DNA from: Patescibacteria group bacterium | GTDB lineage: Bacteria > Patescibacteriota > Microgenomatia > UBA1400 > PJMF01 | Reading direction: 5' to 3' | DNA length: 64,000 bases | NCBI GenBank assembly: GCA_040879165.1 | Contig: JBBDKV010000003.1 | Span: forward strand, 46,838 to 110,837 | Translations under genes and position numbers: made by a program | The notes under the pieces: model-generated | The model's database searches: none | What the model was told of the DNA's origin: nothing | What the model saw: only the letters and a program-made list of their open reading frames with translations | Part shown: positions 42,336-51,393 of the stretch, one piece after another | Layout: the number at the start of each line of letters is the position of its first letter | How positions within the stretch are numbered: position 1 is the stretch's first letter

Positions 42336-42360
42336 AGATAGTGAAAAACTTGCAGCTACT

Positions 42361-42471
42361 CTATTTTAATTTTTTAAGATAGAAGAACAATCCAACCAAG
42401 ACCGCCATCAGAACGGTTGAAATAATAAAAATGTAATCGTCTCGAGAAAATGATTCCGCAAATAACTGCAT
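42361..42471 (-). CDS. Small hydrophobic protein (36 aa), third of a tandem trio; absent from the ORF track
   Basis: Manual translation: MQLFAESFSRDDYIFIISTVLMAVLVGLFFYLKKLK*. Confidence 0.35.
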   Translation of the reverse strand: MQLFAESFSRDDYIFIISTVLMAVLVGLFFYLKKLK

Positions 42472-42484
42472 AGCTGAAACTTAG

Positions 42485-42607
42485 CTACTTTTTACTATTC
42501 TTGCGTGAAACAATAATCAATAACATGCCCAGAATAAGAACTAGCTGACTGACTATAAGGAACGAGCCAGTGACGCTCGAGATGATTTCAGAGAGTTCAC
42601 TTGACAT
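42485..42607 (-). CDS. Small hydrophobic protein (40 aa), second of the trio
   Basis: MSSELSEIISSVTGSFLIVSQLVLILGMLLIIVSRKNSKK*. A GAGGAAAT SD sits 5 nt upstream. It starts 5 nt after the stop of the 67-aa ORF. Confidence 0.45.
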   Translation of the reverse strand: MSSELSEIISSVTGSFLIVSQLVLILGMLLIIVSRKNSKK

Positions 42608-42800
42608 ATTTCCTCAATTCTAAGGCATTCTTAATTGACAGTAAAGCCGATAAAAATAACCAAACAACAATTAACAGGTCGTAGCTCTGTTGGTACTCGT
42701 CCTGACTAGCTAACTTCACTGCCATACCAACCAGTAATCCTTGAGCCACATGGATGTAAAAGTCAGATAGCATGATAGATTGTGCTTGATTAAGAGTCAC
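42597..42800 (-). CDS. Small membrane protein (67 aa), first of the trio
   Basis: Listed in the ORF track. It has two hydrophobic helices and a K-rich C-terminus. Confidence 0.4.
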   Translation of the reverse strand: MTLNQAQSIMLSDFYIHVAQGLLVGMAVKLASQDEYQQSYDLLIVVWLFLSALLSIKNALELRKYVK

Positions 42801-42890
42801 TAATCAAATTATATGTGATCAGCCTTACACAAACTGTAGCGTGCACATTTTTCCTCCTATGTAGCAGTAAAATCTTAATGCCCCATAACT

Positions 42891-42919
42891 ATTGACAGAA
42901 TGATACTATTGCATTAAAA
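42891..42919 (+). promoter_or_regulatory. Sigma-70-like promoter (TTGACA-17-TAAAAT) for the 42968 gene
   Basis: TTGACAgaatgatactattgcatTAAAAT. Confidence 0.45.
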
Positions 42920-42967
42920 TAGATGTTTAGATATAGTTATAACTAGTAAATAACTGACTTCTGCCCA

Positions 42968-43348
42968 GTGAAGGAATATATGAAACAGCTCGTTTTTAGC
43001 CTATTAATCGGCCTTTTTGCTTTTGGCGCCATCGCGTATCCAGCAACTGCACCAGTTCAAGCAACTACTGCTGAGCAAGAGCAGGAACAGAAATTGAAGC
43101 AAGAAGCTGAAGCGGAATGCAAAACTGGCTCATACGGTCAAGATTCAACTTGTGTACTCAAGCTCAAGCAAGAAGCTGAGCAACGTCAACGACAGCGCAT
43201 CTTGGGTCAAGTAACTGAAGATAAACCTGCAGCTGACAAAGTGCACGTCCCAGTGGACACTGCGCTTGACGGCACCACCCTCGCATTTGTACTCGGTACT
43301 GGCGGAGTGGGATCAGCAGCGTACATGATCAGACGCAAGTTGACATAA
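42968..43348 (+). CDS. Small secreted protein with a coiled-coil core and a C-terminal TM + basic tail (sorting-signal-like, no LPXTG)
   Basis: 126 aa. It has a signal peptide and a KLKQEAE repeat. The C-terminus is ...VPVDTALDGTTLAFVLGTGGVGSAAYMIRRKLT. Confidence 0.55.
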   Translation: MKEYMKQLVFSLLIGLFAFGAIAYPATAPVQATTAEQEQEQKLKQEAEAECKTGSYGQDSTCVLKLKQEAEQRQRQRILGQVTEDKPAADKVHVPVDTALDGTTLAFVLGTGGVGSAAYMIRRKLT

Positions 43349-43369
43349 ATTTAGATTTACAATACGCGC

Positions 43370-43398
43370 GATAACCACTCCCTCAAAAGAGTGGTTAT
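43370..43398 (+). terminator. Rho-independent terminator
   Basis: aaCCACTCcctcaaaaGAGTGGttattttatt. Confidence 0.7.
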
Positions 43399-43436
43399 TT
43401 TATTCGCTGGGGCTGTGAAATTTTAAGCCCATAAGA

Positions 43437-43588
43437 TTGACTAAAGTAAGTTATAGTGATATTATATAGTTCTAAATATATCGCTGCCCATCATACTATC
43501 CCAGGCAGCAACAGGAGGCAAAAGTAGCAGATGCATTCTTATTTACTCAAATAGTAAGTGTAGGCGTGCATCTGCTTCTTTTTTTCGT
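43437..43588 (+). ncRNA. Candidate small RNA: consensus-like promoter to a strong intrinsic terminator (~115-nt transcript)
   Basis: TTGACT at 43437-43442, a 17-nt spacer, TATTAT at 43460-43465. Downstream is a 10-bp stem AGCAGATGCA...TGCATCTGCT plus a T8 run (43529-43588). The only ORF inside is 7 codons. Confidence 0.4.
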
Positions 43589-44010
43589 CGCTCTGCCAGC
43601 TTCGCGCTAGCAGTAGCGGTGACAAGTTGAAGTAGAGACTGGTTTTCTGAATTGCCTCCGGCGACTTGTTCGCCAACCTGGCGAAACAGAAAGCTCTTTA
43701 ACAGGCATACAGGAAATAAACTGGGGAAACCTAGTTATAGATAGCTATTTCTGGCTAGAAATAGTGTTCTCCTTGTAGCCCCTTACGCTCCATTAACGTG
43801 GTGCGGGTAACTGGCAGTTTCTCACAAAGCGAACTGCGAGCTGCCCGCATCATCCTAATATTCGGAAGCACAACGATGTGCAGAAGATATTAGGGCGATG
43901 GACTTTTGAGGAGGCTACGGGCGCAAGTTACAGCCTCCTCATATAAAGTTTTCTAACTTTGGGGCAGGCGCCGTGCTTGTCCCGATTTTTTCAATAAAGG
44001 AGAAAGTATC

Positions 44011-45297
44011 ATGCGTAAAATTTTTTGGCTCATGATCATCGCAGCGCTCACCTTGAGTGCGTGCAACCCATTTTCTGCTTCAGAAGAAACCGAAGCCACC
44101 GCAGTGCCTACTCAAGAAGTTGTTGAGACTACGGCAACCCCGTCACCAACGCCCGACCCCACATCCGTGGCACTCACCACAGAAAACTCTCAGCTCAAGG
44201 CGCGTATGACGCGCACAGCTGATGAGAGTGCTCGGGAAGCAGTGGTGGCTGACGTTGGTAACTCACCAACCCCAGAACCACCTACGTTGCTCTCCCCAAG
44301 AGTACAGCAGGAAACAGTCGCACCGACCCCGGCTCCGACTGTGAATGTTGATGTGCTCGCCGCGAATATTGCGGCAAGCATGTCCTCGTACTTGCCTTCT
44401 GGCGCCCCGCCAGAGGTGCAGGTAGTCCTGCAAGAGGCTTCTCACGAAGCCGCCACACAGTTAGTGGCGGCTGGTGGCAACGAAGAAGACGCAGTCACCA
44501 TGGCTGCGTCCCTGTTCAATGCCCTTCGGGACGCGGGAGCGTTCTGTTGGGCCGATAAAACGGCCACGTGGTCCGAGAATTATTCGGCCAGTGGTGAATA
44601 CTTGGGACCTCAACGCCTCGAGATTAGCCAGCATCAGCAGAATGTCAGTCACCTAGATTACTATCGCGGGCCCGGATCGGCCGCGATTAGTATCTTAGTA
44701 CGTGGCGGTGAGGAAGCGGTGTTGTTGGGCAACGGCTCCCTCTGGGAATACCCAGGGGATCGTTGTAACGGGTTCGATTTCCTCGAGGATCTGTCGCTCT
44801 ACGCGGCAGGTCGTCCAGACTGGGGGCACTCGGGGTTGGTCTTCGCCAACCTGAGTGATGCGCTCAATGGGGAGCCAGCACTCAACCCTCGCGGTTTGAG
44901 TGCTAGCCAAATCGACGCGCTCCGGCCGATCCTCTTCACCGAGGATTCGGCAAAGTTGGCGCAGGTTCGTGCGGTCACCGGGTTCACCCCCGATGACCGC
45001 GAAGCGGCCTGCAAGGCCGTGCGGGAAGATCATCCCCCAGTGGACGGAAGTCCCTGGAGGATAAATGCGTCAGAGGGACCGGTCATCGTTAATTTTTGGT
45101 CCAATTGGCCTGGCATTGCCACAGCTGGCGAGGCCAAAATAATGATTCAGTCCGGCACCCTCGTCCTCCGGGGCGGCGGATCAGCCTTCTATTATCCCAA
45201 AGGCTGCGACGATGTCGCGGCTAAAGGATATGGGGAGAATCTAAACTCCCCATGGACTGTTGATGGGAGCCAATTGGAGCCCTACATCGTCCGATAG
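44011..45297 (+). CDS. Lipoprotein of unknown function on a high-GC (~58-60%) segment, putatively horizontally acquired
   Basis: 428 aa. It has a lipobox (LTLSAC), P/T-rich linkers (TPSPTPDPTS, SPTPEPPT, APTPAPT) and a GGAGA SD. Many spurious antisense ORFs occur inside it, which is typical of GC-rich DNA. Confidence 0.7.
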   Translation: MRKIFWLMIIAALTLSACNPFSASEETEATAVPTQEVVETTATPSPTPDPTSVALTTENSQLKARMTRTADESAREAVVADVGNSPTPEPPTLLSPRVQQETVAPTPAPTVNVDVLAANIAASMSSYLPSGAPPEVQVVLQEASHEAATQLVAAGGNEEDAVTMAASLFNALRDAGAFCWADKTATWSENYSASGEYLGPQRLEISQHQQNVSHLDYYRGPGSAAISILVRGGEEAVLLGNGSLWEYPGDRCNGFDFLEDLSLYAAGRPDWGHSGLVFANLSDALNGEPALNPRGLSASQIDALRPILFTEDSAKLAQVRAVTGFTPDDREAACKAVREDHPPVDGSPWRINASEGPVIVNFWSNWPGIATAGEAKIMIQSGTLVLRGGGSAFYYPKGCDDVAAKGYGENLNSPWTVDGSQLEPYIVR

Positions 45298-45470
45298 ACG
45301 GCACCCGCCAGCTGCAGCGGTTCACCAAAAGCAGCTTAAAAAAATATTTCCTCGTATGCCTACGTCCCCCTCTTCGGAGGGGGACTCCCCAAAGGGTACA
45401 ACTCGCTTGCGCCTTTTGGGGAGTCAAAAAAAGCTCTGATATTTATAGGAAAATAAAAAGGAATAATACT

Positions 45471-45680
45471 ATGAAAAGTATTGCAATAAGCATCATTCTG
45501 GCCACTATCGTTTTTGGTGGTATTACGGGATATTGGGTGTATGCAACTCAAGCTCAGCAGGTACTCTTGACCAAACATGCAGCAGTTCAGGGCTGTATTA
45601 CTGTACTTCCAGAAGTCAATCCTGGCTGGTACAACAAGTGCATGGCAGAAAAAGGATATCAAACAAACTTAACGTACTAA
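45471..45680 (+). CDS. Small membrane/secreted protein
   Basis: 69 aa. An N-terminal TM helix and two Cys; an AAGGAA SD. Confidence 0.4.
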   Translation: MKSIAISIILATIVFGGITGYWVYATQAQQVLLTKHAAVQGCITVLPEVNPGWYNKCMAEKGYQTNLTY

Positions 45681-45713
45681 TCCGTATAAAATTAAAAAGC
45701 GGCTTAGATCTGT

Positions 45714-46691
45714 ATGCCTAATAATCAAGCTACCCAACCATTTGTCAGCGTCATCATGCCGGTTTATAACGCAGCGGCCTATTTACCACTGGCTATCGAG
45801 AGTATTCTTAAGCAGTCATATACCAACTGGGAGCTGATCATAGTTGATGATGCATCTACCGATGGCTCCTGGCAGATCATTCAGCACTATGTCAGAACTT
45901 CAACAGGTAAGATAACCGCTTACCAATTAGATAAAAATCACAATGCCGGCGGAGATACTGCGGCCAATATCGCCTACCAACATGCGAGCGGCCAGTACGT
46001 CGCCCGTATGGATGCGGATGACATTTCTCATCCAAAACGACTCCAACACCAAGTGAAGTTTCTGCAACAAAACCCACACGTTACCATACTCGGTACCAAT
46101 GCGGTGGTGATTGATAGTTCAGGCAAAAAAATGGGCAATAAAACCATGCCAGCTGAGCACAACGCGATCACGCAGGAATATTTTAGATATCACCCAATCA
46201 TCAATCCAACAGTGATGATTAATCGCTCACTCTTTCCTAATAAATCACAACTCTATCAACTCAAGAATAGCAGCAACAATGACTACTACACGTTCTTCAG
46301 ATTACTCTGTGACGGACATCAATTTGCAAATGTTCAAGAACCGCTACTGTCATACCGGATTCATGGACAAAATGATTCACTCGCCAATGTGAAGCGAAGT
46401 TTTAAGAATACCCTGTTAACACGCATCGAGATGGTGAAAAAGCATGGATATCGCCCATCACTTAAAAACTGGCTCATTACAGCAGCACAATTATCAATTA
46501 TTCTGATACTACCTGAAAAAGTGCTGTTCGAACTCTATCTGCACTTGCGTGGAATTAAAAAATTGAAGGCTCCTGCATTCACCAGCGTTACTGCTAGTTA
46601 TATAGCCAGTGTGCGGGCTGAACTACTTCGCTCTAGTATCAACTGGCGCCACAAAATTGCCAAAAAAGTACTCTATAACACACACTCATAA
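45714..46691 (+). CDS. GT2 glycosyltransferase (Ppm1/CsbB/GtrB-like polyprenyl-phosphate sugar synthase candidate)
   Basis: 325 aa. It has VSVIMPVYNAAAYL...IIVDDASTDGS, and a DAD motif (RMDADDISHP). Confidence 0.8.
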   Translation: MPNNQATQPFVSVIMPVYNAAAYLPLAIESILKQSYTNWELIIVDDASTDGSWQIIQHYVRTSTGKITAYQLDKNHNAGGDTAANIAYQHASGQYVARMDADDISHPKRLQHQVKFLQQNPHVTILGTNAVVIDSSGKKMGNKTMPAEHNAITQEYFRYHPIINPTVMINRSLFPNKSQLYQLKNSSNNDYYTFFRLLCDGHQFANVQEPLLSYRIHGQNDSLANVKRSFKNTLLTRIEMVKKHGYRPSLKNWLITAAQLSIILILPEKVLFELYLHLRGIKKLKAPAFTSVTASYIASVRAELLRSSINWRHKIAKKVLYNTHS

Positions 46692-49600
46692 TGCTACAGT
46701 TATGGAACACTCGCCTAAGAAATTTTTTCAAAACCCACATCGTCACACTAATACTACTGGGAGTTGTGCTCTCAATAGGCGCAGCTAGTTTTCAATCAGG
46801 AACATTCTTGCTTGGTTGGGATGTGACTGCTCCAGAGTTGGCAATTTCGCTGAATCTCGAACGCAGCATTTTTGGTGTCTGGCAAACCTATCGTGGACTA
46901 GGCACGCTCGACGGCATGGCACATGTTGCCAATGTAATTCACGTCCTCCTGATGGCTTTCTGGAAATTACTCGTGGGAATCGAGGCTGCTCGCCCACTCT
47001 GGTTGCTAATACTGTATGGACTTGGCATGCTTGGCTCAGCTGCTCTAACCAGACAAATCTTTGCAAATATTGCTAAAAAAACTGATACAAAAATCGAGAT
47101 GGCAGCAAGCTTAATCAGCGGATTGGCATACGGGTTGAACTTTTACGTGCTGCAAATGTTTTATGTTCCTCTGGAAGTGTTTGCCTATCAATTTGCTGCC
47201 TTACCATGGCTTTTGTGGTCAGCAGAACACTACTTAACTAACAGATCACACAAAGCACTTGGGGTTTTTGGATTAATTACCTTGTTGGGATTAGGTCAGG
47301 CTCATGTTCCCACTGTATTCATCAGCTCCGCCCTGCTATTTGGCTGCATGCTGCTCTGGAGACTGAGTGTAAATTGGAAAAAAAACCTACTCTCAGTTGT
47401 ATTATTAGGATTAGTATTTACCGGTATCAATGCATCGTGGATGTTGCCATACACCTACAGCGCCATACAAAAGCCAGACGTTATTGCAGGATCACACATC
47501 AACCAACTCTCTACACCAGAGATTTCAGCCAGAAATAAGTCGTGGGGCACTGTGCGTGGCGTCTCAACTATGGGGAGTTTTAACCTCGATTACTTGAGTT
47601 GGTCAGAAACACCAAAAAATAACATCTATATGATGGGTGACTGGCGAGAGCACTATTTTTCATTTACGTATCAATCAGTGACTTTTCTGCTGTTTGGGAT
47701 AGCTTTTTTCGGAGTACTTACTATGCTTATCAGGAGAAAGTGGCGCACAACGCAGAGCGTATGGATTCCAGTGACGTTCATACTCTTTTTTGCTTTATTA
47801 GCCAATAACTCAGCGTTGTTTGGCTGGGTGACTCAAGTTCTTACCGCTGGAGTGCCTTTTTTTGGAGAAGTCTTTCGCTTCACTTTTACCAAGTTCTCTC
47901 AGCCGTACGCACTGCTTTTGAGCGTGTTGCTCGGAATCGGAGTAGCCCAAGCTGCCCTACTTCTGCATGCACGCGGGCATCAGAAACGACAATGGCTACT
48001 AGTAATCTTCACGCTCATCTTAATTTTCACACACTCACTACCAATCTGGAAAAATGGTATATTTTACAAAGAACTCTGGGTGAGTGTTCCTCAAGAATAT
48101 TTTGGACTCACTGAGTACTTAAACACCAACACTTCAAGTACTGAAAAGGTAGCCATTCTACCAAGCCCAACTCTCTATGGCTGGACGAGCAACTCGTGGG
48201 GGCATAGAGGATCAGGATTTTTGTGGCAGATGGTGCGACCAGCAATGATGGATAGAGCTTTTGACGCATGGAGTACAGAAAACGAAACATACTATCAGCA
48301 GCTTAATACAGCCCTTAGCTCGCAGGACGAAACAGCTTTTTTTGCTGTCTTAAATCAATATAACATCGACTATATTTTGTATGATAGCAGTATTGTTGCT
48401 GGAACAAGTGAGCTTCAAACTGCTGAAAATCAAGTCATGAAAAACTGGTTGCTTGATCAATCAGAAGTGGTATTTATGGATGGCTACCTAACACTCTATC
48501 AACTAAATTCTTCTACTACGCATTCTCCGCTTCTCAGTACTGAAAATACTCCTATCCTCAGCGGCTCAACCCTACGCACACAACGGAACACGCTTCCTAC
48601 TCCGTATCTTGAGGCGAAAACTGGCTCTCAATTAGTTCAGAAAACACACCCATTTTTATGGGTAACACAACAAAAAATTGCCGACGAACGATTTCAATAT
48701 CGGCAAGAGGTACTCAGCTTGTCGCTGCCTTCCGTAGAGACTCCGACCACACTAACACTACCAAAACCAAATCAGGGAGCGCAACTCAACCTCCCCTTTA
48801 TGGTAATGGCAGATGACGAGAGGTTGATCTTTAACGGACTACCTATGGGTATCGTGACATCTGGAACAGAGGTAGAAGCGCTTGAAAACCCAATGTCATT
48901 TTCTCATTCAACCACAGCAATGAATGAGAATTCTACACTCCTAATTGAGGTGAATGAACAATTAATTGCGATTAATACCAATGAACAACCCACAGTCTGG
49001 CTGACGAAACTCAAGATGGATCAACCTATCAAGATTAGGGTGATTCAACATGATCAAATCGAAACTTTGACAGATGCCATCCTAAATGCAGAATCAAACT
49101 CTGAGACACGTATTCCAGCCAGTATCTGGGATGAATTTCCTGAGACAGAAATACCTATCAATCCGGGCAGAGAATCAGTTCAATTACATCTCTCTACCCA
49201 CGCAATTCAGATTTCCTTAGATGATGGTGCGCCAGTAGAAAACTGCGACTCTCTTGGGCGTGGATTCGTAACCGAAAGCATCGGGCGGGATGGTGTAGAA
49301 ATACGGTCACGGGGATTTGCGAATGCCTGTAAAGGCTTTCCATTACTTCCAGCGAGCTCTCATGAAAGTTTTTTCCTAAAGGCATCAGGCTCAAGTGACG
49401 CAGAAAGTGGACTACTTTTTGGGGTAGATCACTGGTCAACACCAAGATTGGCAACATATCAGATGCTCAATCCTGATGAAAATACAATTGTGATGTCAGT
49501 TCCATCTGCACCGCATCTTGCAAAGCAAGGTTCTTCACTGATCGTTGAAAATCGATCCTTCTCTGAAAAATTTGCTACTGCACAAATCCAAAGTATCGAA

Positions 49601-50023
49601 GTGTTTATGCCAAGCTACTCAATTGAATACCTACAAGATATTTTTATTCATCCAGAAAATGAACAGGTTAATACTAGTAGTGATGCTGCAATCCACACAG
49701 CTTCTGCAACTTTTCTCACACCTACTCAAATAAAAGTCAAACCAAGCAATAATTCAAGTCAGGCTAATACTTCTGCATTAGTTCTTTTACAAGCATATGA
49801 CCCCGGCTGGATTGCCTTTCCTTCAAACAAGCCATGGCAACGTCTTGAGCATGCTAAGTACAACGGGTGGGCGAATGCATGGCTGATTGATTCAGACAAT
49901 GAGGAGTTGACTATTTTATATCTGCCACAGTTACTAACCTATGCTGGATATACATTATTACTCACCACTCTGTTTTTTCTATTTAAGAGCTGGAGGCGAG
50001 AATCTAGACACTTCCTTGCTTAA
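46691..50023 (+). CDS. Giant polytopic membrane protein, YfhO/GT-C-like glycosyltransferase candidate
   Basis: 1110 aa. About 14 TM helices sit in the first ~460 aa. A large extracytoplasmic domain follows, then a C-terminal TM. The TAATG overlap with the upstream GT2 indicates translational coupling. Confidence 0.4.
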   Translation: MLQLWNTRLRNFFKTHIVTLILLGVVLSIGAASFQSGTFLLGWDVTAPELAISLNLERSIFGVWQTYRGLGTLDGMAHVANVIHVLLMAFWKLLVGIEAARPLWLLILYGLGMLGSAALTRQIFANIAKKTDTKIEMAASLISGLAYGLNFYVLQMFYVPLEVFAYQFAALPWLLWSAEHYLTNRSHKALGVFGLITLLGLGQAHVPTVFISSALLFGCMLLWRLSVNWKKNLLSVVLLGLVFTGINASWMLPYTYSAIQKPDVIAGSHINQLSTPEISARNKSWGTVRGVSTMGSFNLDYLSWSETPKNNIYMMGDWREHYFSFTYQSVTFLLFGIAFFGVLTMLIRRKWRTTQSVWIPVTFILFFALLANNSALFGWVTQVLTAGVPFFGEVFRFTFTKFSQPYALLLSVLLGIGVAQAALLLHARGHQKRQWLLVIFTLILIFTHSLPIWKNGIFYKELWVSVPQEYFGLTEYLNTNTSSTEKVAILPSPTLYGWTSNSWGHRGSGFLWQMVRPAMMDRAFDAWSTENETYYQQLNTALSSQDETAFFAVLNQYNIDYILYDSSIVAGTSELQTAENQVMKNWLLDQSEVVFMDGYLTLYQLNSSTTHSPLLSTENTPILSGSTLRTQRNTLPTPYLEAKTGSQLVQKTHPFLWVTQQKIADERFQYRQEVLSLSLPSVETPTTLTLPKPNQGAQLNLPFMVMADDERLIFNGLPMGIVTSGTEVEALENPMSFSHSTTAMNENSTLLIEVNEQLIAINTNEQPTVWLTKLKMDQPIKIRVIQHDQIETLTDAILNAESNSETRIPASIWDEFPETEIPINPGRESVQLHLSTHAIQISLDDGAPVENCDSLGRGFVTESIGRDGVEIRSRGFANACKGFPLLPASSHESFFLKASGSSDAESGLLFGVDHWSTPRLATYQMLNPDENTIVMSVPSAPHLAKQGSSLIVENRSFSEKFATAQIQSIEVFMPSYSIEYLQDIFIHPENEQVNTSSDAAIHTASATFLTPTQIKVKPSNNSSQANTSALVLLQAYDPGWIAFPSNKPWQRLEHAKYNGWANAWLIDSDNEELTILYLPQLLTYAGYTLLLTTLFFLFKSWRRESRHFLA

Positions 50024-50082
50024 TTTTTTACATTCAGTAACTTCCTACACTTCCCTAAAGACTCCTGCGCTAGACTTAGCGC

Positions 50083-51393
50083 ATGACCCAAAAACGCATC
50101 CTCCTCACGCTCCTGTTTGTACTCCTCTTCACGCTCCTGCTCGCACTAATCGCTCAGAGTGCTCATCTTGCTTCAGCTGCTTCTCCCGAAATCATCATCT
50201 CCGAACTCTACCCAGCCCCACCTGCGGGCAGCGGCGAGCCAGAGTGGATCGAGCTTGCCAATGTCAGTGAACAGGATATCGACATCTCTGGCTGGGAAGT
50301 ATGGGATCAGTTGGCGTCACCTGGGCAGCTAAACACATTTGAGCCCGGAACGATGGTGCCTGCCAACTCTTTTTTACTCATTGAACTGACCGTCCACAAA
50401 CTCAACAACACCGGTGACGGCGTGGTGCTGATCCACTCCGATGGTACCATCGTAGACGACTTCTGGTACTCAGGCACTACTGCTAGTAAATCATGGCAGC
50501 GCCAGTCGGCAGACACGACGCAACGTATCCTAACCAATCCTACCCCTAGCGCAGAACACCCAGAATACCCCGTTCTCTCAGCTTCGACAACACAACCATC
50601 TCCATCTCCCCAGCCTTCTCCAACACCAACTCCCTCGCCAGCCTCAACTCCCCAGCCTACCTCAACACCCACGCCCCAACCTACACTCGACCCAACCACA
50701 ATCACCCAACACGTCACCTTTACTGAGTTTGCTGCCTGCCCATCAGGGGGATCAGAGTGGATTGAGCTCTACAATACCAGTCCACAGCTGACGATCACTG
50801 ACTGGGTTGTTCGTGATGCTGGCGGCAATCAGCGCACAATCAGTGGCGAATTACCACCGTTTACTTTTACTCGGTTTTCCTGGGGTGGCTCGTTACTCAA
50901 TAATTCGGGAGATGAATTCTCCATTTTTACAGACACTGACGCGCTGATTGGATCAGCAAGCTATGATTCTTGCACCCTGGGGCTGAGTCATATTTGGGAC
51001 GGCACCAACTGGATTCAGCTTGCACTCGATCTGACTACGAACCCAACACCGACGCCGACGCCATCACCAAGCCCAACTACCCAGCCAGCTCCAACCACCG
51101 AACCAGATTCAACCAAAAATGAAACGGAGCAAGCAGGCTCTGCGACTGAGGCTAATGCCGCGATCCAGGGCGCAACTACTACCACAACTGAGCCGTACCC
51201 TCACACACTGCCCACCTACTCACCACAGCAGCTGCACACAGGTGCCACGATTACCGATTCGGTGATCGAGTTTGAACAATCAGAGCTTCCCAAGTTACCG
51301 ACGCTGAGTGTTATAATGGGTGGATTGCTCCAGCTCTTGCCTGGAGCTGTTAGCTTATATGTCAAACGCACTCAGTCCAGCGATATATCTTAA
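50083..51393 (+). CDS. Surface protein with two Lamin-tail domains separated by Pro/Thr/Ser-rich linkers, and a C-terminal hydrophobic anchor
   Basis: LTD signatures IISELYPAPPAGSGEPEWIELANVSEQDIDISGWEVWD and VTFTEFAACPSGGSEWIELYNTSP...DWVVRD. Linkers PSPSPQPSPTPTPSP and NPTPTPTPSPSPTTQPAPTT. C-terminus ELPKLPTLSVIMGGLLQLLPGAVSLYVKRTQS. Confidence 0.7.
   Translation: MTQKRILLTLLFVLLFTLLLALIAQSAHLASAASPEIIISELYPAPPAGSGEPEWIELANVSEQDIDISGWEVWDQLASPGQLNTFEPGTMVPANSFLLIELTVHKLNNTGDGVVLIHSDGTIVDDFWYSGTTASKSWQRQSADTTQRILTNPTPSAEHPEYPVLSASTTQPSPSPQPSPTPTPSPASTPQPTSTPTPQPTLDPTTITQHVTFTEFAACPSGGSEWIELYNTSPQLTITDWVVRDAGGNQRTISGELPPFTFTRFSWGGSLLNNSGDEFSIFTDTDALIGSASYDSCTLGLSHIWDGTNWIQLALDLTTNPTPTPTPSPSPTTQPAPTTEPDSTKNETEQAGSATEANAAIQGATTTTTEPYPHTLPTYSPQQLHTGATITDSVIEFEQSELPKLPTLSVIMGGLLQLLPGAVSLYVKRTQSSDIS

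Follow-up and report, generated by a model that had tools for sequence, protein, structure and literature searches.

The stretch of DNA analysed here, 64,000 nt of contig JBBDKV010000003.1 from a Patescibacteria group bacterium (hereafter the window), contains a gap of 662 nt between the stop codon of a gene for a small secreted protein (43348) and the next ATG (44011), which opens an envelope-glycosylation operon. An original prediction had placed in this gap an orphan promoter-to-terminator unit encoding a candidate ~115-nt small RNA (sRNA). Comparison with related loci (given handles such as L002) shows that the unit is not an orphan, since homologous promoters in relatives lead into a conserved leader in which a long hairpin is followed by BoxA, the proposed loading site of NusB/NusE. 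We judge, with somewhat better than even confidence and from sequence comparison, that the window carries a BoxA (NusB/NusE) processive-antitermination leader of the envelope operon, equipped with a clade-specific 5′ attenuator. The features of the locus are as follows.

43372-43405, + strand: intrinsic terminator of the upstream small anchored-protein gene; hairpin TAACCACTC...GAGTGGTTA, then TTTTATT, ΔG −11.5
43429-43465, + strand: leader promoter; upstream motif CCATAAGA, −35 TTGACT (43437-43442), 17-nt spacer, −10 TATTAT (43460-43465)
43483-43509, + strand: P1, predicted small hairpin of the clade-specific 5′ module; stem GCUGCC/GGCAGC, loop variable
43526-43585, + strand: T1, terminator-like element upstream of BoxA; hairpin 43526-43576 and U-tract 43577-43585
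43531-43554, + strand: seven-codon open reading frame (ORF) MHSYLLK, ATG to TAG, inside T1; AGGAGG at 43513-43518
43588-43644, + strand: 5′ domain of the conserved leader, in which CUCU...AGAG flanks a hairpin AGC-UUCGC-GCU; common to L002, L009, L015, L011 and L019
43645-43691, + strand: boxB-like long hairpin; outer 5-bp stem, AA/AA internal loop, middle stem UUGCC/GGCGA, variable tip; ends 1 nt before BoxA
43693-43703, + strand: BoxA GCUCUUUAACA, proposed NusB/NusE loading site, match to the consensus GYTCTTTAANA
43704-43716, + strand: extension GGCAUACAGG(AAA) directly 3′ of BoxA, suggested boxC-like element or second factor site
43720-43768, + strand: two hairpins of the predicted fold after the BoxA block, ACUGGGG/CCUAGU and AUAGCUAUUUCU/AGAAAUAGUGUU
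43799-43852, + strand: H3, long hairpin UGGUGCGGGUA...UGCCCGCAUCA, kept in L019, L015 and L009
43854-43894, + strand: H4, hairpin with inner stem-loop GCAC-AACGAU-GUGC (43868-43881), loop AAYGAY conserved
43908-43940, + strand: H5, hairpin GAGGAGGC...GCCUCCUC with UACGGGC in its interior; homologous hairpins in L015 and L009
43959-43991, + strand: T2, terminator-like hairpin (43959-43985; 12 pairs, 6 of them GC) and U6 (43986-43991), 20 nt before the start codon
43996-44013, + strand: ribosome-binding site (RBS) AAAGGAG and ATG (44011) of the first gene, encoding a 428-aa protein with a lipoprotein-type signal peptide
44011-51393, + strand: co-oriented cluster of lipoprotein, 69-aa membrane protein, GT2 glycosyltransferase, 1110-aa membrane protein and LTD-domain protein (Pfam)

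The near-consensus promoter described earlier (TTGACT-17-TATTAT) is genuine, and transcription would start near 43472. It matches 10 of 12 consensus positions and has a TG immediately 5′ of TATTAT, giving an extended −10; promoter-like sites in a 3.5-kb region numbered 10 against 4.0 expected, and the leader promoter is among the two best. The arrangement CCYATAA(N)ATTGAC-N17-TAnAnT recurs 160-360 nt 5′ of BoxA in L002-L007, L009, L010 and L011, and also in L019, and the promoter is thus conserved in at least ten related loci. Promoters of the same type run into a hairpin-BoxA leader, with no intervening terminator, in L002, L003, L005, L006, L007/L010, L009 and L011. The promoter scan found no other + strand promoter-like site between the T1 hairpin and the gene at 44011. 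The upstream gene ends at 43348 and is separately terminated, as had been proposed, by its own hairpin and T-run (~43372-43405), whose stem is kept in L019 and which marks the end of the previous transcription unit. Canonical hairpin-plus-U terminators 3′ of the upstream gene were also found in this lineage by a terminator scan.

The leader of ~540 nt (43472-44013) folds with a z-score of −10.5. Its segment 43590-44010 reaches −7.2 on the + strand against −4.9 on the − strand, and the L002 leader, which has its own TTGACA-17-TAGAAT promoter, −7.5. The unit had been described as lying before a high-GC island, which holds for its position; the island is nevertheless no separate neighbour, as 43588-44010 is the conserved body of the same RNA, and its 5′ domain (43588-43644) displays an A-U to G-C double change relative to L019. 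Small ORFs inside the leader have no Pfam match and are not conserved, and coding potential was rejected. Rfam at gathering thresholds matched only tRNA-Pro in the whole window, Rfam at E ≤ 10 over 42700-44200 only eukaryotic miRNAs and snoRNAs at chance level, and Rfam over 16 related loci only tRNAs, with no riboswitch, ribozyme or EAR match and no rRNA. ARAGORN found no tmRNA, and viral contigs gave no match. Identity with the SRP, 6S, tmRNA or RNase P RNAs, which had been raised earlier, is excluded because Rfam returned no match. Known Rfam families do not cover this leader family, which constitutes an annotation gap of long structured leaders in otherwise compact genomes.

The family was assembled by two routes. 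A scan of public genomes and metagenomes with the central 20-mer of the conserved block retrieved 16 further contigs, while motif-independent look-ups via flanking small proteins contributed L019, L020 and L025 as new loci and hit the contigs of L014 and L010 a second time (that of L014 as P0006, with an identical leader region). Most loci display a common layout of promoter, a variable 25-300 nt, two-tier hairpin, BoxA, GGCAUACAGG, second hairpin, 150-800 nt of structure, and RBS plus gene, the leaders being 0.4-1.05 kb long. The gene that follows encodes a secreted protein, membrane protein or lipoprotein in most loci, with L011/L014/L017 as the exception. The L020 leader (925-1976) spans ~1050 nt, with BoxA at ~1181 and the start codon at 1977; a 53-aa minus-strand gene call inside it is probably spurious.

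The hairpin-BoxA core

In every member the long hairpin ends 0-2 nt 5′ of BoxA, and its pairing is supported by covariation. Across 14 sequences (alignment A4), 88.6% of cells were paired, compared with 39-56% when the 3′ partners were slid, and none of 500 shuffles matched the observed pairing or covariation. A comparison of homologous leaders, proposed with the original prediction as a check, thus supports this hairpin, 8 of its 10 pairs showing changes on both sides. The outer stem takes the forms UUCUG/CAGAA, CAUCU/AGAUG, UUCUC/GAGAA, UCUUG/CAAGA and UUCUA/UAGAA among members, and the middle stem retains U-A and U•G pairs while G-C is exchanged for A-U. In the MAFFT alignments A2 and A3 the 3′ strand of the hairpin was off by one column in members without the 1-nt linker; in A4 a single N was added before BoxA in nine rows, and this column is unpaired and outside the pair counts. 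A covariance model of the core (R1) scored 73.4 bits at the window hairpin-BoxA and found one copy in the window.

BoxA (DNA GCTCTTTAACA) has no mismatch to GYTCTTTAANA, a consensus based on rrn and suhB sites of E. coli (PMC5725501), and no other perfect match occurs in the window. It lies 228 nt 3′ of the −10 and 308 nt 5′ of the start codon, and is predicted to be unpaired in the whole-leader centroid fold, between two independently folding hairpins. Relative to the L002 leader, which is otherwise ~50% identical, the 25-nt block AGCUCUUUAACAGGCAUACAGGAAA (43692-43716) is the sole long stretch of perfect conservation; no second copy of the BoxA block occurs in the window. BoxA is also perfect in loci found via flanking proteins (L002, L019, L020 and L011/L014); searching with the motif itself added 12 more loci.

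The extension GGCAUACAGG is identical in 16 loci, all retrieved with the 20-mer that contains it. L025 carries GGUUUACAGG in its place, and second leaders identified in L003 and L005 lack it. These second leaders (GCUCUUUAACAACACUU; L003 4148-4206, + strand; L005 317-376, − strand) have their own promoter and lie 2.8 kb 3′ of the first leader, before another signal-peptide protein. As they keep only the hairpin and BoxA, these two elements are the general core, and genomes of the lineage can evidently carry several such leaders. The L025 block variant GCUCGUUAACAGGUUUACAGG (11-31) combines a U-to-G change in BoxA with CA-to-UU in the extension, 10-30 nt from the contig end, and reflects either true variation of BoxA or a fault in the assembly. 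RNAalifold (alignment A6) pairs GCUC of BoxA (43693-43696) with a conserved G(G/A)GC in the H5 interior (43919-43923). This pairing would, if true, sequester BoxA; it is beyond a covariation test because it comprises only 4 nearly invariant bp.

The 5′ hairpin, the 3′ domains and the genes served

The lower arms of T1, AGCAGATGCA (43526-43535) and TGCATCTGCT (43567-43576), form a perfect 10-bp stem, and the 31 nt between them also pair, extending it to a ~20-bp hairpin (ΔG −23.3 kcal/mol in the terminator scan). The tail, T-C-TTTTTTT (43577-43585; UCUUUUUUU), has T in 8 of 9 positions. The 10-bp stem, structured 31-nt interior and U-tract reported earlier are therefore all present, with the single correction that the longest run is T7 and not T8. 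T1 has the composition of an intrinsic terminator, a stable GC-containing hairpin directly followed by a U-tract, and termination is predicted. The putative 119-nt transcript folds at −39.9 kcal/mol (z = −5.5), with none of 200 shuffles as good. The enclosed seven-codon ORF is present as described, from ATG 43531 to TAG 43554 (MHSYLLK).

The T1 module is shared only with L019, which is the nearest of the relatives retrieved and whose neighbouring protein is 84% identical. In every other member a terminator scan revealed no comparable terminator between promoter and BoxA, which leaves the module in 2 of about 12 lineages. The lower arms of T1 are identical at 20 of 20 positions in L019 and the U-tract at 9 of 11, against identities of 59% in the linker before T1, 61% in the apical part of T1 and 44% in the 3′ domain of the leader; the P1 stem also folds in L019, with a different loop. 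Since the stem is invariant while its flanks are only ~60% identical, it is under constraint. Judged by its sequence, T1 is a clade-specific element under constraint; it is built like an efficient intrinsic terminator and would end a ~113-nt RNA. Such a promoter-to-terminator product, close to the ~115-nt RNA first proposed, is plausible. It may also act in trans, although neither the linker, at 59% identity, nor the search for targets in the window supports this, and the unit is absent from other lineages, in which the homologous promoter drives the leader directly.

No T1 copies occur elsewhere in the window, and a repeat or mobile-element reading was rejected. Inspection from the transcription start to 43525 found no segment complementary to either T1 arm, that is, no upstream anti-terminator. 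Partial complements located downstream were considered as T1 anti-terminators and rejected, as they cannot act before termination. No ligand-binding fold, anti-terminator alternative or conserved leader peptide was found for T1.

On the 3′ side of BoxA, a hairpin starts ~1-6 nt after CAGG in 14 of the 15 members examined (the exception is L008), the sequences being mutually unrelated. H3 covaries, GCGGG/CCCGC being replaced by AUGAG/CUCAU in L002 and L025, as do the H4 stems under the AAYGAY loop (GCAC/GUGC in the window and L015, CUAC/GUAG in L019). The L019 hairpin at the position of H5 carries UACGGGU. At the position of T2, L015 and L009 have GGGG...CCCC-UUUU hairpins and L002 a hairpin followed by U6; an antitermination leader would be expected to override a terminator placed 3′ of BoxA.

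Alternative pairings were observed in four leaders. L002 (~1640-1750) and L025 (~110-225) contain a second exact copy of the H3 5′ arm (UUGGUAUGAGC) directly before a U-run, and H3 and the terminator would be mutually exclusive there because the H3 3′ arm can pair with either copy. L008 and L020 contain triples of decoy Shine-Dalgarno (SD), anti-SD and SD sequences in which the anti-SD can pair with the decoy or the real SD. These arrangements suggest that the 3′ domains are switches, and as they hint at such a function, BoxA is probably not the whole story.

The cluster behind the leader covers ~7.4 kb, and the same gene order is found in L002, L015, L024 and L025 and partly in L008/L016. A search of 5.8 billion proteins returned only two relatives of the 428-aa lipoprotein, one of which, 71% identical, is on L002. 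The 1110-aa multi-pass membrane protein (46691-50023, + strand), a conserved neighbour of GT2 in every long locus, matches neither Pfam nor NCBIfam; it displays a conserved GWD(V/N)..PELN motif at its N-terminus and might serve the envelope pathway as a large glycosyltransferase or polymerase. Upstream, the conserved neighbours encode FtsE/FtsX, an M23 peptidase and a C-terminally anchored secreted protein of ~115 aa.

The secreted protein (42980-43348, + strand; ~112-122 aa in the family) lies directly 5′ of the leader in most loci, with homologues in L005, L007, L008, L010-L013, L016, L019 and L020, and has no match in Pfam or NCBIfam. It comprises a signal peptide, an EQEQ-rich region, two Cys residues and a C-terminus in which H.PVDTA(L/M)D precedes a hydrophobic segment and a tail of RRKL, an arrangement that looks like a sortase-type sorting signal. 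CCYATAAC(T)A just 5′ of a TTGAC(A/T) −35 with a good −10 occurs at only two sites in the window, the promoter of the small anchored-protein gene (42883-42920) and the leader promoter (43429-43465), and paired promoters bearing this motif were found again in five other loci (L004, L007, L010, L011 and L018). The pairing suggests a site for a shared regulator or sigma factor linking the small-protein and leader units. Between the M23 peptidase gene and the small-protein promoter, 42336-42880 (~545 nt) is AT-rich (30-39% GC) and apparently non-coding; its ORFs are short and on the minus strand (67, 40 and 36 aa), without a convincing Pfam match, and the L019 counterpart spans only ~100 nt.

Several related contigs carry gamma-proteobacterial labels. 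L004, L005, L007 and L008, from GTDB-representative metagenome-assembled genomes, are titled ‘uncultured Pseudomonadales’ and L003 ‘Methylococcaceae’, yet all have a Patescibacteria-type locus. The RNase Y and PcrA genes of the window conflict with these labels, as does the name under which NCBI lists its proteins, ‘Patescibacteria group bacterium’; the labels are likely to reflect mis-binning or mislabelled taxonomy.

Proposed antitermination and its alternatives

In the proposed mechanism the promoter (43437-43465) would start a ~540-nt untranslated, structured leader reaching the lipoprotein gene at 44011. T1 would act on it as an attenuator, some transcripts ending as a ~113-nt RNA, and would thereby set the number of polymerases that reach BoxA. 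NusB and NusE (S10) would then bind the nascent BoxA and, with NusA and NusG, make RNA polymerase termination-resistant, and neither Rho nor intrinsic terminators would stop the modified enzyme on its way through the remaining ~300 nt of leader, T2 and the long operon. The role of leader attenuator, a clade-specific add-on, is the most likely one for T1, which the BoxA-loaded complex could not suppress because T1 lies upstream of BoxA. The cis-regulatory leader that the original prediction had listed beside a novel sRNA is thus the option favoured by the evidence. If the mechanism is true, Nus-factor processive antitermination is used outside rRNA in the Patescibacteria phylum. The apparent orphan sRNA becomes the front end of a larger regulatory RNA, for which read-through assays make more sense than a target search. 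Literature searches returned no paper that mentions BoxA together with Patescibacteria. None of nusA, nusB, nusE, nusG and rho was seen among the annotated ORFs of the window, where no search was aimed at them.

Several points weigh against antitermination. About 0.2 perfect BoxA matches are expected per 64 kb and near-matches occur at chance level, and it is conservation and context that carry the case. The identity of BoxA in 16 loci is partly ascertainment, because these were retrieved with a 20-mer containing BoxA, and the independently found L025 has GCUCGUUAACA, with a U-to-G change inside BoxA 14 nt from the contig end, which, if real, may be incompatible with NusB/NusE binding. The E. 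coli rrn complex is mainly anti-Rho, and read-through of the intrinsic-type T2 is an extrapolation. A strong constitutive terminator 5′ of BoxA is an odd design, and no way past T1 is apparent in the sequence. BoxA may also be only part of the function, because the leaders, at 0.4-1 kb, far exceed the length required of a Nus loading site and hold more conserved loops (AAYGAY, UACGGGC) than such a site calls for.

A wider interpretation, which we put forward tentatively and hold to be well short of even, takes the leaders as an undescribed class of large cis-regulatory RNA in Patescibacteria that controls a conserved surface-glycosylation operon. Such an RNA would join a Nus loading site (hairpin and BoxA) to downstream conformational switches (antiterminator/terminator, decoy-SD/anti-SD, and AAYGAY and GGGCR loops sensing a signal) and, in the clade of the window, to a promoter-proximal terminator releasing a functional ~113-nt sRNA; through the shared CCYATAA motif, the leader and the neighbouring anchored surface protein would belong to a single regulon.

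A large regulatory RNA of another kind, either a ligand or protein switch or an RNA with a function of its own, in which the BoxA-like block binds or pairs with a partner other than NusB/NusE and T1 is structural and non-terminating, is considered unlikely. It would account for leaders of 0.4-1.05 kb in otherwise compact genomes, for their extreme folding z-scores, for the AAYGAY (H4) and UACGGGC (H5) loops conserved over covarying stems, for the mutually exclusive pairings in L002 and L025 (second H3 5′ arm before a U-run) and the decoy-SD/anti-SD/SD triples in L008 and L020, and for the GGCAUACAGG extension, which has no counterpart in known BoxA sites, as well as the changed BoxA of L025. 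An exact 11-nt BoxA match, single-stranded and placed right after a hairpin in the rrn order, is however hard to explain otherwise, the second leaders of L003 and L005 retain the hairpin and BoxA and nothing else, and no Rfam riboswitch or ribozyme matches. This reading is, moreover, largely compatible with BoxA-mediated antitermination and does not exclude it.

It is likewise improbable that the promoter and T1 form a stand-alone gene for a ~113-nt trans-acting sRNA, with the structured region downstream separate and merely adjacent. The architecture is sRNA-like, proceeding from a 5′ single strand through the P1 hairpin, a 16-nt linker and the terminator hairpin to a U-tail, T1 resembles an efficient intrinsic terminator, and its stems and U-tract are under purifying selection relative to L019. 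Against this, the homologous promoters of eight other lineages run into a hairpin-BoxA leader without a terminator, and a conserved leader with no + strand promoter-like site between T1 and 44011 would have no promoter of its own. The linker, which would have to serve as the seed, shows only 59% identity to its L019 counterpart and has no complementary target in the window beyond chance, and the module occurs in only 2 of about 12 lineages.

Leader-peptide attenuation, in which translation of the seven-codon ORF would melt the T1 5′ arm and let polymerase pass, coupling operon expression to translation, has very little probability. The ATG falls within the 5′ arm of T1 and the stop codon within its apical loop, and AGGAGG upstream resembles a strong SD, but the spacing from SD to ATG is 12 nt, AGGAGG pairs with the U-tract region in the folded RNA, and L019 has AAGGACC instead, at a distance of 17 nt from the ATG. 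The L019 peptide diverges after 4 codons and differs in length, and the stem itself accounts for the conserved nucleotides. The weakest alternative, that T1 is a back-up tandem terminator for the gene at 42980-43348, which it follows on the same strand ~180 nt after the first terminator, and that the promoter match is fortuitous, is excluded for practical purposes because the conserved promoter, with its peculiar upstream motif seen in many loci, sits between both terminators, and relatives with the same upstream gene have no second one.

Comparison with known systems

Leader attenuators and riboswitches leave short terminated RNAs, occasionally with roles in trans. Like them, the promoter-proximal T1 would release a ~113-nt RNA while some polymerases continue; unlike known examples, T1 is confined to two close lineages and has no ligand fold, anti-terminator or conserved leader peptide that could be found.

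The closest parallel in the order of elements is the leader of rRNA operons, where the antitermination complex rrnTAC forms with NusA/B/E/G, SuhB and S4, and where a stem-loop precedes a single-stranded BoxA soon after the promoter of a long untranslated transcript. The rrn order is boxB-boxA-boxC, and boxA is necessary and sufficient for formation of the antitermination complex in E. coli (PMC10250234). In sequence, the window BoxA GCUCUUUAACA does not differ from the E. coli rrn type (PMC10250234, PMC5725501). In contrast with rRNA operons, the window leader precedes a protein-coding envelope operon, neither the window nor the 16 related loci contain rRNA, and terminator-like hairpins lie both before (T1) and after (T2) BoxA. 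The window hairpin is also much longer than rrn boxB (~47 nt, two-tiered), and BoxA is followed by GGCAUACAGG where rrn has boxC (UCUGUGUGGG), a sequence that is absent from the window leader, as is a partner for a leader-trailer helix.

BoxA at consensus level is likewise present in the 5′ untranslated regions (UTRs) of protein genes, as in E. coli and Salmonella suhB and at predicted gamma-proteobacterial sites, which supports Nus-factor regulation beyond rRNA (Baniulyte et al. 2017, PMC5725501). At those sites BoxA lies within 50 nt of the start codon (≤50 nt), and suhB is repressed by a translation block followed by Rho termination (PMC5725501). The window BoxA differs in lying 308 nt from the start codon, in a leader type of 0.4-1 kb with extensive structure, and in a different phylum.

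In lambda nut, BoxA and an adjacent stem-loop make polymerase resist downstream intrinsic and Rho-dependent terminators (PMC10250234). The window leader resembles nut in presenting BoxA beside a stem-loop in nascent RNA. The order differs, as in nut boxA comes before boxB, whose GNRA-like loop is bound by phage N, whereas the window hairpin precedes BoxA and no N homologue is implied.

RfaH/ops, LoaP and the EAR RNA of Bacillus eps ensure read-through of long envelope and polysaccharide operons by a signal near the 5′ end, relying either on a NusG paralogue that acts with a DNA ops element or on the fold of the EAR RNA. The window leader has no Rfam EAR match, and its proposed signal is BoxA. 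The logic is the same in each case: a 5′-proximal signal secures read-through to the distal genes of a long operon with membrane or envelope functions.

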